Source: an uncultured Gammaproteobacteria bacterium (GTDB lineage: Bacteria > Patescibacteriota > Microgenomatia > Levybacterales > GWA1-39-11). Taken from it: a stretch of 64,000 nucleotides of DNA. How positions within the stretch are numbered: position 1 is the stretch's first letter; the number at the start of each line of letters is the position of its first letter. Below the pieces are notes generated by a model that did no database searches, was not told the origin of the DNA, and saw nothing but the letters and a program-made list of their open reading frames with translations. The translations under genes and the position numbers were made by a program. This document shows positions 35,176-59,951 of the stretch, piece after piece. The DNA lies in the NCBI GenBank assembly GCA_964406795.1, contig CAYOTA010000003.1, positions 49,252 through 113,251 of the forward strand, written 5' to 3'.

Positions 35176-35613
35176 TTTTGCGCGTACAAGATTTGAAACC
35201 ATTCCTGAGTCTGCTTTGCCTTTTAAGTGTGGCATTAAAATTCCCATAACGCGTCCCATATCCTGCATGGTGGTGGCGCCACTTTGAGTGACTGCAGCGT
35301 CAATTAACGCTTTCACTTCATCTTCAGACATCTGATCAGGTAAATAGCTTTGCAAAATCTCAAGTTCTTTCTTTTCTTTATCTGCTAACTCTGCTCGTCC
35401 GCCTTTTTCATATAGCTCTATTGCTTCACGTCTTTTCTTAACTTCCTTTCCAATAACATCCAGTATGTCGTCATCTGTTGCCTTGTAATCAAGGCCTTTA
35501 TTTATCTCAGTGTATTGGACAGCGCTTTTTAGCATGCGAAGTGTTGAGAGTTTTTGCTCGTCGTGTGCCAACATCGCTGCCTTTATGTCTTCTTGTAATG
35601 TGTCGCTTAGCAT
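35167..35613 (-). CDS. GatB/YqeY domain protein
   Basis: 148 aa with typical YqeY pattern. Confidence 0.75.
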   Translation of the reverse strand: MLSDTLQEDIKAAMLAHDEQKLSTLRMLKSAVQYTEINKGLDYKATDDDILDVIGKEVKKRREAIELYEKGGRAELADKEKKELEILQSYLPDQMSEDEVKALIDAAVTQSGATTMQDMGRVMGILMPHLKGKADSGMVSNLVRAKLS

Positions 35614-35638
35614 ATTTGAATTATATCATGTAAAGAAT

Positions 35639-37035: not shown

Positions 37036-38682
37036 ATGAAAAAGTGGAAAGTATTGAAAGATACTGGAGAACTGTCAAAAATGACAACTGGGCAAGTCAT
37101 TAAAACTCTTTTGGAAAATAGAAAAATTTTAACAAAAGCTGAGTATGAGCAGTATAGTCATCCCAGCCTTGAGTCTGTAAATTTTAAAAGTGTAGGAATA
37201 AGTATTTCAGACGTTGATAAAACAATTAAAAGAATAAAGGAGGCAATACAAAAAAACGAAGCTATTATAATTTACGGAGATTATGATGTAGATGGAATTT
37301 GCGCAACGGCAATTTTATGGGAGACTATTTACTCATTTTACAAAAATGTACATCCATATATTCCGCACCGAGTTGACGAAGGATACGGGTTATCGATACA
37401 AGGAATTCAGAATATAGAATCTAGAATCCAGAATATTGGATTGATAATTACAGTAGATAACGGGATTGTTGCCTATAAGGCACTGGATTTTGCAAAGACA
37501 CACGAAATAGATGTTATTGTTACAGACCATCATGTAGGGGGGCAAAAAATTCCCGATGCTCATGCTATAGTGCACACAACAAATGTGTGCGGCACGAGCG
37601 TTGCCTATTTATTATCAAAAAAAATAGAGGAAGAATTTAGTCTTTCCCCAAATGAGGCTCATTTGGAGCTGGTTGCACTAGCTACAGTTGCTGATTTGGT
37701 GCCGCTTAAAGAACAAAATAGAACTTTGCTTAAGTATGGATTAAAGGGGATTCAGAAAACACAAAGAAAAGGGTTATTAGCATTATTCCAAGAAGCTAAA
37801 GTAAAAAAAGAAGAGATAGATGTATACCACATAGGGCATGTCGTAGCTCCCAGACTAAATGCAAGTGGTAGGATAACTCACGCAATGGATGCGCTACGGT
37901 TGATTTGTACTACAGACACAGTCAGAGCCCAAAAGTTAGCTCGAGTACTCGAGGAAACTAACAAAAATCGTCAAACCTTAACGTTTGATTCTGCCAATCA
38001 AGCAAAAAACAGTATAGATAAAAATAATTTAGAAAATATTCTCATTGTTTCAGAACCGGAATATGATCAGGGAGTAATTGGACTTATTGCGTCAAAATTG
38101 GTTGAAGAATTTTACAGGCCATCTATTGCAATTTCAGTAGGGGATGAAATTTCAAAAGGTTCTGCGCGTTCTATTTCAGGCATAAATATTATTGAGTTAA
38201 TCAGATCAGTACCTGAATTTTTAAAAGAAGCAGGAGGACATCCTATGGCCGCTGGATTTAGTATTGAAACAAAAAATCTTGAAAACTTTAAAAATGCATT
38301 AGTAAAAAAAACTAAAAAGGAAATTGATCCTCAATTATTTGATCGTGTTTTATATATAGATATGGAGCTACCATTTGAGAATATAAATATGGAATTATAT
38401 AGTGGCATTCAAGCATTAGCGCCATTTGGTATGGGAAATTCTCAGCCTGTTTTTATAACTCGCGGAGTGACAGTTGCGGGAGTTAATAGGGTAGGAAAAA
38501 ATAAAGAACATGTGCAGCTAATGATTGAAAAGGATGCGAGCCTTTTTAAAGGCATTATGTTTCGTTATGAAAAAGAAGATTTGAAGCCTGGTGTGCTTGC
38601 CGACATAGCTTATTCTATAGAAAAAAATGAATGGAATGGGAGGGTAAATATTGAGCTGCGTCTAAAAGACATAGGTATCTAG
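37036..38682 (+). CDS. recJ: Single-stranded-DNA-specific exonuclease RecJ
   Basis: DHH motifs (DYDVDG, DHH at VTDHH) and DHHA1 domain with GGH motif. Confidence 0.85.
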   Translation: MKKWKVLKDTGELSKMTTGQVIKTLLENRKILTKAEYEQYSHPSLESVNFKSVGISISDVDKTIKRIKEAIQKNEAIIIYGDYDVDGICATAILWETIYSFYKNVHPYIPHRVDEGYGLSIQGIQNIESRIQNIGLIITVDNGIVAYKALDFAKTHEIDVIVTDHHVGGQKIPDAHAIVHTTNVCGTSVAYLLSKKIEEEFSLSPNEAHLELVALATVADLVPLKEQNRTLLKYGLKGIQKTQRKGLLALFQEAKVKKEEIDVYHIGHVVAPRLNASGRITHAMDALRLICTTDTVRAQKLARVLEETNKNRQTLTFDSANQAKNSIDKNNLENILIVSEPEYDQGVIGLIASKLVEEFYRPSIAISVGDEISKGSARSISGINIIELIRSVPEFLKEAGGHPMAAGFSIETKNLENFKNALVKKTKKEIDPQLFDRVLYIDMELPFENINMELYSGIQALAPFGMGNSQPVFITRGVTVAGVNRVGKNKEHVQLMIEKDASLFKGIMFRYEKEDLKPGVLADIAYSIEKNEWNGRVNIELRLKDIGI

Positions 38683-39017
38683 CGCGCTTTTTTAATCGTT
38701 TCAATTCCCTTAGGAATTGGATCTGTAACAAACTTGTCTAGAGTTTTTTTAACATCCTCTGCTGAAACATTTGCTCTTCTAAGTATCTGTCCATAGATAG
38801 GGGCAAGTTTTGCTGCCTCCAGAAATGCATTTCCCTCTTCTTGTCTTTGAAAACGGTTTCTGTCTGCCCATTTTTCTCGTTCATTTACGCTCATATTCTT
38901 CCATTCTGGGGGAAGATTCGAGTTGTTGTTTGGTATTTCAGATGATCTTGGCATATGTTTTGTCTTTTGTTCCTTAAAAAGGTCGCTTTGCTCTTTTTCT
39001 AAAGATACCTTCCTCAA
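38679..39017 (-). CDS. Hypothetical protein (start uncertain: TTG at 39017 or ATG at about 38954)
   Basis: ORF-track call; preceded on the minus strand by a promoter/terminator leader; 23-bp direct repeat spans start. Confidence 0.35.
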   Translation of the reverse strand: MRKVSLEKEQSDLFKEQKTKHMPRSSEIPNNNSNLPPEWKNMSVNEREKWADRNRFQRQEEGNAFLEAAKLAPIYGQILRRANVSAEDVKKTLDKFVTDPIPKGIETIKKAR

Positions 39018-39053
39018 AAGGTCGCTCCGCTCTTTTTCGTCGCAATGCTCCTC

Positions 39054-39087
39054 AAAATAAAAAAACTCCCATTTTTACTGGGAGTTT
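39054..39087 (-). terminator. Intrinsic terminator on minus strand (aaactccca-N7-tgggagttt followed by T-run on minus strand)
   Basis: Perfect 9-bp stem read directly; run of 7+ T on minus strand (A-run 39054-39065 on plus). Confidence 0.45.
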
Positions 39088-39170
39088 AAAACTGAATTAG
39101 TTTCAAACCCCAATTAAGGGAGTGCTGCAAAATTAATAAAATGTTGTGTACAACTCATACTATGGGTCTA

Positions 39171-39199
39171 ATTATACCACTTGAAGGGGTGTTTGTCAA
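39171..39199 (-). promoter_or_regulatory. Consensus sigma70 promoter on minus strand: TTGACA-17-TGgTATAAT
   Basis: Reverse complement of 39171-39199 reads TTGACAaacaccccttcaagtggTATAAT with TGn extension; divergent from aspS promoter. Confidence 0.5.
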
Positions 39200-39207
39200 G
39201 ATATCTC

Positions 39208-39236
39208 TTGCCAAGCAGGAGTACACAAGCTAAAAT
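39208..39236 (+). promoter_or_regulatory. Sigma70-like promoter for aspS (TTGCCA-17-TAAAAT)
   Basis: Spacing 17, -10 ends 6 nt before ATG region. Confidence 0.35.
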
Positions 39237-39242
39237 ACGAAT

Positions 39243-40613
39243 ATGTCAGAAAACCCACAAAGAACTTTAAACACAGAATGTCTTGAAAAAATTGGCCAAG
39301 AAGTGCAGCTGGAAGGCTGGGTGCAGGTGGTACGCGCACACGGAAAGATAGCGTTTATAGATTTAAGAGACAGAACAGGTATTATCCAGATTGGTGCATT
39401 TGAGGGTAGCTTGCCAGCTGAATTTGCAAAATTAGGCATGCAGGACGTGGTGAGAGTCTCAGGGCTTGTTAAAGCGCGTGGGGAAAAGTATGTAAATAAA
39501 AATTCGCTGCTTGGAACCATAGAGCTAGAGGCAAAAAGTCTTGAAATAATTCAAAAATCAGCAGAAATGCCATTTGATATGGGAGGGAAAGACTTAAATC
39601 TGGAGCTTCCCACACTACTTGATAATAGAGGGCTTACATTAAGACACCCTAAGGTTGCAGCAATTTTTAAAGTTCAGGAGACTGTAATTGATTCATTTAG
39701 AAAAGCACTTCAAGAGAAAGGTTTTACAGAATTTCAGGCACCAGTTATTATCCCCCAGGGAGCTGAAGGCGGCGCTGAAGTTTTTGAAGTAGACTACTTT
39801 GGCAAAAAAGCTTATTTATCCCAGAGTCCACAATTTTATAAGCAGATTTTGGTAGGTGTTTTTGAGCGAGTGTTTAGTGTTAACAAAACACTTCGCGCGG
39901 AACCATCCATTACAACCCGCCACTTGGCAGAGGCAACAACCCTTGACGCTGAGTTTGGATTTATTAACTCCTGGATAGATGTTTTGGATATGGCAGAGTA
40001 TGTTATTAGATATGTATTTGAAAAGGTAGCGCTTGAAAATGGGGCGGAGTTAGAAATGTATGGAGTAACAATTCCTCAAATTGCCTCAGAAATTCCAAGA
40101 ATAAAACTGAGAGAAGCACAAAAAATTATTTTAGAGCGAACGAGCAGAGATAATACAAATGAGCCTGATTTAACTCCTGAAGATGAGCGTGAGATTTGTA
40201 GATGGGCAACTGAGGAAAAAGGGTCAGAGTTGGTTTTTATAACTCACTATCCGGTTGAAAAGCGGCCATTTTACACATATGAAGACCCACAAGACCCGGG
40301 TTATACTCTGAGTGCTGATTTAATTGGACGCGGAACTGAGTGGATGACTGGAGGTCAAAGAATTCACACATTAGAAAAGTTAGTAGAAAATGCAAAAAAG
40401 CGCGGAATTGGTTTGGAGAAGAGTGAATTATATTTTCAAGCATTCAAATATGGAATGCCGCCTGAAGGTGGATTTTCATTTGGTTCAGAGCGTGTCACCA
40501 TGCACATTTTAGGCCTACAAAATGTCAGGGAAGCAAGCTTATTCCCTCGGGATATGGAAAGAGTTGATACTAGATTTTCTGCCTACCATGAAGAAAAAGA
40601 CAAAAAAGTATAA
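39243..40613 (+). CDS. aspS: Aspartate--tRNA ligase, archaeal/eukaryal-type (class II)
   Basis: Class II motifs incl. FRAE...RHLAE, QSPQFYKQ, GGQRIH; 456 aa with N-terminal OB fold. Confidence 0.75.
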   Translation: MSENPQRTLNTECLEKIGQEVQLEGWVQVVRAHGKIAFIDLRDRTGIIQIGAFEGSLPAEFAKLGMQDVVRVSGLVKARGEKYVNKNSLLGTIELEAKSLEIIQKSAEMPFDMGGKDLNLELPTLLDNRGLTLRHPKVAAIFKVQETVIDSFRKALQEKGFTEFQAPVIIPQGAEGGAEVFEVDYFGKKAYLSQSPQFYKQILVGVFERVFSVNKTLRAEPSITTRHLAEATTLDAEFGFINSWIDVLDMAEYVIRYVFEKVALENGAELEMYGVTIPQIASEIPRIKLREAQKIILERTSRDNTNEPDLTPEDEREICRWATEEKGSELVFITHYPVEKRPFYTYEDPQDPGYTLSADLIGRGTEWMTGGQRIHTLEKLVENAKKRGIGLEKSELYFQAFKYGMPPEGGFSFGSERVTMHILGLQNVREASLFPRDMERVDTRFSAYHEEKDKKV

Positions 40614-45385: not shown

Positions 45386-45430
45386 ACGCCTATTGTACCA
45401 TAGAGGGGTATGGCGTGATATAATAAAAGC

Positions 45431-46435
45431 ATGGAAGCAGTTGAGCACAGTTTAAAGCACTACTTTATTAAAAACCAGATCGTGGCAGCACTTATCTTGG
45501 TTTTGGTGGGATGGTTTATTCTGCAAATAAAAGAAATACTTATCCTTTTCTTTATTGCGTATATTTTGATGGCAGCACTTATGCCATATGTTAAAGTTCT
45601 TAACAGGAATAGGGTACCACGTGTTTTAGCCTCAGGTATTGTGTATGTCATCACATTATTTTTAGTTGTATTGTTAGTTGTTCCAATCGTTCCCTTTTTT
45701 GTGTCCCAAATGCAGTCACTATTCTTAAACCTTCCGGTATTTATAAATGATTTTTCCAAAGTCATTGGTTTTCAATTTGAGGCATCAAACTTGCAGGATT
45801 ATGCAACTTCGCAGCTGGGCAGTATTAGTGCAAGTGCAGTGGCCATTACAACCCAGGCGTTCTCCATAATATTTTCTCTTATTTTAGTATTTGTTTTGTC
45901 ATTTTACCTTATGATAGATCAGAGTCGAGTACGGCGCGAGCTAGTGTCTATTTTTCCAAAAAAACAGGAAGAAAAAATCTTATCAGTAATAGAGCTTATT
46001 GAGGACAAGTTAGGAGCATGGTTTAGAGGGCAAATTACACTTTGTATTTTTATAGGGTTTTTAACATGGGTAGTATTAACAGTTATTGGAATTCCGTTTG
46101 CACTCCCGCTCGCTATTTTAGCTGGTATACTTGAAATTATTCCAACCCTGGGTCCCATATTGTCAGCAGTTCCTGCGGTTATCGTGGCGCTTTCTATTTC
46201 TCCTGTTACAGCTCTCATAGTTGTTATTGCGTATGTGATTATTCAAATGCTGGAAAATAACTTGCTGGTTCCAAAAATCATGCAGAAAGCTGTGGGTCTC
46301 AATCCCATTGTTATTATACTAGTTATCACTATAGGAGCTAAACTTCTGGGAATATTAGGAGCACTTTTGGCAATTCCATTTGTGGCAATGCTTATTATCA
46401 TCTTTAAGCACGTAAGAAGTGCCAAAATTTCTTAA
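45431..46435 (+). CDS. AI-2E family transporter (PerM-like permease)
   Basis: 334 aa, 8 TM helices, typical AI-2E layout. Confidence 0.7.
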   Translation: MEAVEHSLKHYFIKNQIVAALILVLVGWFILQIKEILILFFIAYILMAALMPYVKVLNRNRVPRVLASGIVYVITLFLVVLLVVPIVPFFVSQMQSLFLNLPVFINDFSKVIGFQFEASNLQDYATSQLGSISASAVAITTQAFSIIFSLILVFVLSFYLMIDQSRVRRELVSIFPKKQEEKILSVIELIEDKLGAWFRGQITLCIFIGFLTWVVLTVIGIPFALPLAILAGILEIIPTLGPILSAVPAVIVALSISPVTALIVVIAYVIIQMLENNLLVPKIMQKAVGLNPIVIILVITIGAKLLGILGALLAIPFVAMLIIIFKHVRSAKIS

Positions 46436-59009: not shown

Positions 59010-59303
59010 ACATTTTGTATTTTAGATAGTTCTACGAAGTGTTGTAGCTTCAATTACATGCACGAAAAACCAAATTAAAAAAACGTCATCAAAAGCCTTA
59101 TCACACTTGATCTTATACCGAAAATGATTGTAATATGCTATCTCAGCATTTTTAATAGGGTCGCTATATACTAAAGTGTAATATCTTGAAAAAGTGGAGG
59201 CAACACAGTTGTCACCAAACTGTTAAGCTGACTGCTACCGCTGGAATAACAACCCGCAAGCTTTATTAAACCATGTGAGCACAAATTACGGTATAATATA
59301 GGT

Positions 59304-59951
59304 ATGAATACCTCGGTAAAAAATAAGGTAGAGGAGTTTTTTTCTCAATTCACCCTACAAGAATACATAAAAAACCAAATTATCATCTCTCCTGAGGAAA
59401 ATATACAATCTATTTATTTTCTTAAAAAAGGTTTGGTGCGGATGTATATTATTTCAGAAGATGGTGTAGAGGCAACCATTCATGTCTTTCGCCAAGGTTC
59501 TTTTTTCCCAATTATGCTTTCGTTAAGGAGTAGACCAAATAAATACTATTTTGAGGCAATGAAAGAAGTCGAGACAGTGAAGGCTCCGGCAGACAAGGTG
59601 ATCGCTTTTATTAAAACTGACCCGGAAGTATTATTTGATTTAACAACACGCTTCGCAGATGCAATTAATGGGCTAATGAATCGGATAGAACAATTAGTCT
59701 CACAAGGCGCGTATTCCAAAATTGCGTCACTGCTTTTATACTACGCTGATACATTCGGTCAAAAAAAAGGAAATATGTATTATTTTGAACTTCCATTTAG
59801 TCATGACCAGATTGGTACATGGGTGGGAACAACCCGCGAAACTGTCAGCAGACAGATGGAAATACTAGAGAAAAAAAGGATCATTACTCATAAAAATCAC
59901 AAAATTATTATAAACAATCTTGTAAGACTTAGGGATGAGGTCACAAAATAA
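59304..59951 (+). CDS. Crp/Fnr family transcriptional regulator
   Basis: cNMP-binding-like beta-roll plus C-terminal HTH (TRETVSRQMEILEKKRII). Confidence 0.75.
   Translation: MNTSVKNKVEEFFSQFTLQEYIKNQIIISPEENIQSIYFLKKGLVRMYIISEDGVEATIHVFRQGSFFPIMLSLRSRPNKYYFEAMKEVETVKAPADKVIAFIKTDPEVLFDLTTRFADAINGLMNRIEQLVSQGAYSKIASLLLYYADTFGQKKGNMYYFELPFSHDQIGTWVGTTRETVSRQMEILEKKRIITHKNHKIIINNLVRLRDEVTK

Follow-up and report, generated by a model that had tools for sequence, protein, structure and literature searches.

A putative leader-peptide transcription attenuator between aspS and recJ in Candidatus Levybacteria

The region between aspS and recJ on contig CAYOTA010000003.1 (assembly GCA_964406795.1, positions 49,252 to 113,251; the whole of this 64,000-nt stretch is called the window below) raises the question of why a perfect promoter on the minus strand should lead, within some 110 nt, into an intrinsic terminator that lies ahead of a small gene. 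The unit, at 39199–39054, had been picked out in an original prediction, which offered two explanations for it, i.e., a stand-alone small RNA (sRNA) or a terminator-based leader controlling the downstream gene. The analysis described here points to a ribosome-dependent (leader-peptide) transcription attenuator that would control the small gene at 38954–38679, a reading to which a probability of roughly 0.7 is given. It draws on the alternative RNA structures available to the leader, on the placement of a 14-codon upstream open reading frame (uORF) within it, and on the conservation of both in a family of related leaders.

Parts and alternative structures of the leader

The leader promoter consists of the −35 hexamer TTGACA (39194–39199; all features of the leader lie on the minus strand), a 17-nt spacer and an extended −10 element, TGgTATAAT (39171–39179). 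Its hexamers match the consensus at 12 of 12 positions, with the TG in addition, just as had been predicted for 39199–39171, and in a consensus scan it was the sole 12/12 match in 38000–40500. Going by the usual 7-nt distance, transcription would start at about 39164–39163. The uORF, which encodes the peptide MSCTQHFINFAALP in 14 codons plus a stop (39114–39158), begins with the ATG at 39158–39156, ends with the TAA at 39116–39114, lacks a Shine–Dalgarno (SD) sequence and would have a 5′ untranslated region (UTR) of only about 5–6 nt. Further downstream lies the intrinsic terminator hairpin, AAACUCCCA-GUAAAAA-UGGGAGUUU (39063–39087; 9 bp, 4 of them GC), and the stem and U-run that had been predicted here were borne out by a reading of the minus strand and by the consensus scan. 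In the U-tract, UUUUAUUUU (39054–39062), the U's extend to 39059 and are followed by an A and then by UUUU to 39054; an attenuated transcript of ~105–110 nt would be expected to end here.

The hexamer ACUCCC is present twice (39123–39118 and 39085–39080), as the original prediction had stated, and the mutually exclusive pairings suggested for it belong to a four-segment system, made of the duplicated ACUCCC and two G-rich partners, that can pair as 1:2, 2:3 and 3:4, plus 1:4. Segment 1, ACUCCC (39118–39123), is part of the final uORF codons and has as its partner segment 2 or, in the minimum-energy fold, segment 4; segment 2, UUGGGGUUUG (39104–39113), begins right behind the uORF stop codon and can pair with segment 1 or segment 3; segments 3 and 4 belong to the terminator hairpin. 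A middle hairpin, GUUUGAAACU / AGUUUUAAAC (39084–39108), the 3′ arm of which has AAAC in common with the terminator 5′ arm, lengthens the 2:3 antiterminator, i.e., segment 2 and the adjoining GUUUGAAACU pair over 16 bp with AGUUUUAAAC-U-CCCAGU, the terminator 5′ arm included. The predicted transcript has a minimum free energy of −29.9 kcal/mol, which beats all 200 dinucleotide shuffles (z = −3.6); this fold combines 2:3 with 1:4, and the best structure with 1:2 and 3:4 comes to −23.4 kcal/mol. In these models 2:3 would serve as an antiterminator that excludes the 3:4 terminator, and 1:2, which overlaps the end of the uORF, as an anti-antiterminator. The pattern CTCCC-N3-16-GGGAGNTTTT occurs once in the 64 kb of the window, against an expectation of 0.01, and no other unit with a promoter, terminator and ORF of the leader type was found there.

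The effect of a ribosome on this system was followed by masking its footprint at each A-site codon of the uORF and computing, at equilibrium, the pairing probability of the terminator 3′ arm. This probability was 0.8 without a ribosome and 0.7–0.8 with the ribosome at codons 1–9, fell to 0.0–0.2 at codons 10–12 (UUU GCA GCA, i.e., Phe-Ala-Ala, 39123–39131), and was 0.8–1.0 from codon 13 to the stop. A different assumed footprint size shifts the predicted read-through interval by one codon in either direction, and about two thirds of the leader family described below show a sensitive interval of this kind.

The mechanism that these structures suggest has three states. If the leader carries no ribosome, either 3:4 or the 2:3+1:4 stack would place a hairpin next to the U-tract and transcription would stop near 39059–39054. 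A fast ribosome that has reached the stop codon, which here follows a proline codon, would mask segment 2, so that 3:4 could form and transcription would again be terminated. A ribosome delayed at codons 10–12 would mask segment 1 and leave segment 2 free to form 2:3, segment 4 would be left without a partner, and RNA polymerase would continue into the small gene. The signal would be slowed translation of the leader, caused either by a general translation stress or by a shortage of a charged tRNA, for which Phe is the sole lead; Phe-tRNA as the signal of the window leader is a minority possibility. The terminated leader could additionally act in trans.

The leader family and its co-varying segments

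In the two closest genomes, a search with nhmmer found the leader likewise divergent from aspS, and inspection of 31 genome loci and 48 metagenome loci gave ~36 distinct leaders, which fall into 16 clusters at 70% identity (individual loci are designated L001 and so on; further copies are present in L080, L084 and L086). The synteny is constant: a carboxypeptidase gene and aspS lie on one side, divergent from the leader and its small gene, and recJ and cca on the other, with recJ convergent to the small gene. The position divergent from aspS, an element of the original prediction, is kept in many related contigs. All of the ~36 leaders have TTGACA or TTAACA as the −35 together with a 17-nt spacer and a −10 hexamer, and in all members of the family an intrinsic terminator separates the uORF from the gene, with its U-run 138–167 nt from the −35 in most. 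The gene of the relatives begins 0–68 nt past the U-run, mostly within ~25–30 nt, a gap into which, in most of them, a separate promoter would fit barely or not at all, so that expression of the gene would depend on read-through.

No feature of the family is more tightly positioned than the start and the stop of the uORF. An ATG lies 7–15 nt past the −10 in 33 of the 36 leaders, where 0.077 would be expected per leader, and L021 starts with GTG instead. The uORF is 13–26 codons long in 33 of the 35 leaders scored (the outliers have 33 and 38), the length of 14 codons is kept in L001, L002 and L080, and the differences among relatives amount to whole codons (13 to 22 across groups; one codon between L056 and L061). 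With segment 2 taken in each leader as the best upstream complement of the terminator 5′ arm, the first in-frame stop begins 0–7 nt 5′ of it in 30/35 leaders, a spacing found for the other two frames from the same AUG in 1/35 and 2/35. The original prediction had dismissed the 14-codon frame for want of a ribosome-binding site, an objection that falls away in view of this placement and of the habits of the genome: SD sequences are nearly absent from the window and most of its genes have none, and since SD-less initiation is normal there, the missing site is no argument against translation of the uORF. Many first genes share the start context TAnnnT-N6-ATG (39231–39243 for aspS, 35613–35625, 45419–45431 and 59292–59304), and their mRNAs, that of aspS among them, are predicted to be leaderless.

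A proline codon directly ahead of the stop (CCU UAA, CCC UAA, CCC UAG or CCU UAG) was observed at the uORF end in three independent leader groups, i.e., in the window (39114–39119) and in L001, L080, L004, L039, L014, L036 and L038. Pro-stop is a slow-termination context, and it could keep the ribosome on segment 2 and thereby strengthen transcription termination; the C-richness of segment 1 might account for it just as well.

Joint variation of the paired segments was approached in several ways. RNAalifold, run on plain MAFFT alignments, picked up the terminator and small hairpins and missed the long-range helix, and for the five-member subgroup of the window it showed zero two-sided changes; this outcome led to the use of alignment-free tests, in which cognate duplexes were compared with non-cognate ones, and of a covariance model. 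Across the leader family, the 2:3 duplex energy was −10.2 kcal/mol for cognate and −8.2 kcal/mol for non-cognate pairs (permutation, p ≤ 2e-4), and the corresponding values for 1:2 were −10.5 and −8.6 kcal/mol (p ≤ 2e-4). The paired flanks vary jointly from leader to leader (GGGGUUUG/AAACUCCC, GGGGGAGUCA/GAUUCCUCGC, GCGGAGGUUGG/UAACCUCCGUU). An extra long-range helix, P1, which joins uORF codons 2–6 to the stretch preceding the terminator, is present in ~19 leaders, and its covariation is clear (ACUUUUUGCC/GGCAAAAAGU, UCUUUCCAAG/CUUGUUGGAAAGA, CUACACACAA/UUGUGUAGG). The covariance model, built from the subgroup of the window, matched only the leader element in the window and recovered other leader groups full-length at the expected site with E values from 2e-4 to 1. 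In the resulting alignment 92.8% of the cells pair and both sides change in 14 of the 18 pairs, which none of 500 shuffles equalled, and the covariation score was 0.40, whereas slid partners reached no more than 0.12. Conservation and covariation in related genomes, which the original prediction had named as a way to check it, were both found, since hairpin and promoter are kept and 2:3 and 1:2 co-vary.

A variant was observed upstream of aspS in L032 and L033, where a shortened leader (~107 nt, counted from the −35 through the U-run) has neither an ATG uORF nor the 1:2 segments, and one frame starting with TTG would stop in the terminator loop; this suggests a different (pyrBI-like) or degenerate design. 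As a whole, the leaders form a previously undescribed family that is conserved at the aspS–recJ site in Levybacteria. No description of leader-peptide attenuation in the Candidate Phyla Radiation (CPR)/Patescibacteria was found in the searchable literature.

Phenylalanine-rich relatives and the gene slot

Two relatives, L035 and L050, share the layout of the window leader, and their aspartyl-tRNA synthetases (AspRS) are 70% and 65% identical to that of the window. Their leaders (L035 439–587 and L050 2326–2479, both on the minus strand) have uORFs that encode the peptides MQNQRRHFSFFFTFA (L035) and MSQAVKFFSFYFNFQKGGGLT (L050), each with five Phe codons in frame, against 0–2 in the other frames. 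The genes behind them (L035 1–425, L050 513–2301) code for prephenate dehydratase (PF00800), and in the footprint scan the predicted sensitive intervals coincide exactly with the Phe runs. Compared with the Rfam family Phe_leader, L050 scored 48.3 bits (E = 3e-5), below the gathering score of 55. L035 and L050 appear to follow the classical pheL–pheA logic, which suggests that the layout can work as a ribosome-mediated attenuator; they would be the strongest indirect evidence that the scaffold acts via translation of its uORF. As the two form a single lineage, the Phe version may be either ancestral or derived. To our knowledge, no CPR lineage has so far been reported to contain a Phe attenuator. 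Phe as a signal for the whole family was also considered and rejected: Phe makes up 13.3% in frame and 11.7% in frame +2, with no frame-specific excess outside L035/L050, and an excess that is matched in frame +2 reflects U-richness. The predicted sensitive intervals across the family showed no amino-acid enrichment.

The gene that the window leader would regulate (38679–38954, minus strand) encodes a hydrophilic, helical protein of 91 aa. A HMMER scan of 1.8 billion representatives returned a sole homologue, P0002 (39% identity), which is encoded at L080 in identical synteny. P0002 begins MPRS…, like the ATG at 38954, and the start of the gene was placed there for this reason; the terminator-to-gene spacer then measures ~100 nt, and the distance of 36 nt given in the original prediction, which rests on the TTG at 39017, has to be revised. 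No significant match to the 91-aa protein was found in Pfam, PADLOC or PHROGs, a word-index search matched only the protein itself, and no exact-sequence record turned up in the assemblies. AlphaFold2, run on the two-sequence alignment, gave an all-helical model of low quality (predicted local distance difference test, pLDDT, 61; predicted template modelling score, pTM, 0.25). The ratio of non-synonymous to synonymous substitution rates (dN/dS) is 0.52 with respect to the L080 homologue and 0.15–0.45 in other cargo families of the slot, and with values of 0.15–0.52 the slot genes are taken to be real genes. The idea that these small genes are decayed prephenate dehydratase was rejected, as tblastn found no remnants.

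The small genes behind the leaders belong to several unrelated families and do not track the leader type. Near-identical leaders in L014, L036 and L038 (uORF MYTF[CY]LFRVVITP) precede three different proteins, and the protein of L036 is homologous to that of L012 despite the different leader of L012; all members of one cargo family that were looked up occupy the aspS–recJ slot. In pairwise comparisons of the DNA, the leader is 80–98% and the recJ end 80–92% identical, and the 300–400 nt between them are only 25–45% identical, no more than random sequences would be. The hypervariable loci include 38679–38954 in the window as well as L014, L036, L038, L012 and L061. A conserved putative attenuator thus appears to front a cassette-like, hypervariable gene position. 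One 91-aa member of a cargo family, P0015 (L084 2501–2776), carries the name “phosphoenolpyruvate carboxylase” in NCBI/nr, which, given its size and the absence of a domain, is almost certainly a misannotation.

The spacer between terminator and gene (38955–39053, minus strand) contains three copies of GAGC-N3-GCGAC, two of which fall within a 39-nt tandem duplication (38977–38999 / 39016–39038). It is missing at L080, the closest homologous locus, where the ATG lies 14 nt past the U-run, and a recent duplication is one possible explanation for it, a protein-binding site another. The neighbours of the unit in the window are the genes for a class II AspRS (39243–40613, plus strand), for RecJ (37036–38682, plus strand), for the CCA-adding enzyme and for a D-Ala-D-Ala carboxypeptidase, and the relatives of this AspRS come from metagenome-assembled genomes of Candidatus Levybacteria / Patescibacteria. 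The aspS promoter (TTGCCA 39208–39213 / TAAAAT 39231–39236, plus strand, with the ATG at 39243) and the leader promoter are arranged back to back. The small gene and recJ converge, and their 3′ ends share 4 nt (38679–38682), so that there is no terminator in between. The carboxypeptidase ORF is listed from the ATG at 40522 and so shares 92 nt (40522–40613) with the end of aspS; its true start is probably further downstream.

Known systems and competing explanations

In form, the window leader looks closest to pheL–pheA. Like that system (Phe_leader, RF01859) and the trp, his, leu and thr attenuators of Proteobacteria, it has a promoter-proximal uORF of ~14–15 codons with the stop just ahead of segment 2, a 2:3 pairing that competes with the 3:4 terminator and, by prediction, termination both without translation and with fast translation. 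It differs from pheL–pheA in having no codon run, no SD and a uORF that begins ~5–6 nt from the 5′ end, and from the classical attenuators in that it precedes a gene for a small protein instead of a biosynthetic operon, belongs to a CPR bacterium and has many relatives that add the helix P1. The Rfam scan that had been proposed for the unit gave no match at gathering thresholds over the whole window, and at E ≤ 10 it gave only sub-threshold PyrG_leader and Phe_leader matches besides chance CRISPR/miRNA ones, with no riboswitch among them. Phe_leader reached 25.6 bits (gathering score 55) and PyrG_leader, the second-ranked weak match by E value, 29.6 bits (gathering score 65). With the PyrG leader (RF02371) the unit has in common a CUCCC/GGGAG terminator behind a short A/U-rich leader; unlike it, it has no 5′ GGGC for reiterative transcription and no pyrG downstream, and the match is essentially to the terminator alone. 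By score, the window leader belongs to no Rfam family.

In lacking codon bias, it appears closest to translation-stress or antibiotic leaders: in bmrB–bmrCD of Bacillus subtilis (PMC4191407) and in mef/mel (PMC4335068) ribosome slowing leads to an exchange of terminator and antiterminator, in toiL–topAI–yjhQ of Escherichia coli (PMC12121999) ribosome slowing in the uORF switches on the downstream genes, and a short uORF without a run of amino-acid codons is common to these systems and the window. Unlike in those systems, the gene in the window is not a transporter gene, a resistance gene or part of a recognisable toxin–antitoxin pair. No intrinsic terminator is known for toiL. In its 5′-proximal, SD-less uORF, the window leader seems closest to the leaderless regulatory short ORFs of mycobacteria, which are reported to encode polycysteine and to act as cysteine-responsive attenuators of operonic genes (bioRxiv 10.1101/834739). 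These are likewise SD-less and at or near the 5′ end of the mRNA; they are truly leaderless and contain runs of Cys codons, whereas the window has a predicted 5′ UTR of ~5–6 nt, no codon run and an intrinsic terminator.

Several points weigh against leader-peptide attenuation in the window. The peptide contains no run of any codon, so that no regulatory codon or pathway, the usual mark of an attenuator, can be read from it, and the Phe that it does contain shows no frame specificity and can be put down to U-richness. The uORF starts 12 nt past the −10, as opposed to the 6 nt typical of the leaderless genes of the genome, and its initiation would rest on a leader of 5–6 nt without an SD. The 1:2 hairpin of the window has just 4 bp. 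The “lock” helix P1 is absent from the subgroup of the window (the window, L001, L002 and L080) and present in L077. Roughly a third of the family shows merely a shallow dip in terminator pairing in the equilibrium scan. The alignment produced by the covariance model is fitted to that structure, distant groups are misaligned in it, and the 2:3 alternative was not counted on it; the family statistics are drawn from related sequences. Finally, the start of the transcript, its 3′ end and the translation of the uORF are all read from the sequence.

As a rival explanation, the same device could be Phe-specific, i.e., a decayed or minimal Phe attenuator with the single UUU at codon 10 as the regulatory codon. 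UUU is the first codon of the predicted read-through interval in the window, L001, L077, L004, L035 and L050, the Phe-rich leaders of the last two precede prephenate dehydratase, and the match to Phe_leader, weak as it is, points the same way. One codon would, however, confer little sensitivity, the codon-10 position is Val in L080, which has the only orthologous downstream gene, and Ile in L002, the Phe enrichment of the family is not frame-specific, nothing recognisable connects the regulated gene with Phe, and no prephenate dehydratase remnants were found; this version is regarded as unlikely. It is still less probable that the uORF is incidental and that the leader is a translation-independent riboregulator, which would respond to temperature, to a ligand or to a protein, possibly the product of the small gene. 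Alternative structures do exist and co-vary, and, as helix arms (P1, segment 1) take up much of the uORF, its conservation could be partly structural. Yet no conserved loops or junctions of the kind that a ligand-binding pocket would require were found, the invariant columns across 29 leaders being confined to the start codon and the terminator, no Rfam family was matched at threshold, and the frame-specific placement of start and stop (30/35 against 1–2/35) and the change from ATG to GTG in L021 would be inexplicable without translation.

The two explanations that remain do without control of the downstream gene. Of the pair offered by the original prediction, the leader was favoured by the co-varying pairings and the close gene of the relatives, and the pure sRNA became very unlikely. 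A stand-alone, trans-acting sRNA of ~105–110 nt, with the downstream gene expressed separately, would account for the perfect promoter and the strong terminator and for the ~100-nt gap that sets the window apart from its relatives, and sRNAs derived from attenuators are known, e.g., rnTrpL. On the other hand, every leader of the family precedes a gene on the same strand, usually 0–30 nt past the U-run, it is present in one copy per locus and always in cis to the gene, and the consensus scan found no promoter-like site on the minus strand of the 38955–39053 spacer from which the gene could be expressed separately. A strong promoter that happens to stand before a leaky terminator, with no regulatory function, is highly improbable in view of an architecture kept in 16 clusters, in which the segments co-vary and the geometry of the uORF is fixed.

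If ribosome-dependent attenuation is accepted for the leader, a further and rather doubtful step would be to see in it a generic sensor of translation stress, a regulatory “socket” for the cassette-like slot for small proteins between aspS and recJ. Such a sensor could represent a Phe attenuator that has been orphaned, or else the form from which the Phe versions arose. Genes of a conflict or host-interaction type, switched on by perturbed translation, would fit the pattern of the slot. For practical purposes, automatic annotation misses both a 14-codon gene and a premature terminator, and the covariance model and the defined locus can be used for mining metatranscriptomes. If the attenuator is real, it would mean that the coupling of transcription and translation in the ultra-small, largely uncultured CPR bacteria is tight enough for attenuation, that they achieve it with SD-less uORFs near the 5′ end, and that one scaffold would serve both a classical Phe circuit and small proteins of fast turnover.

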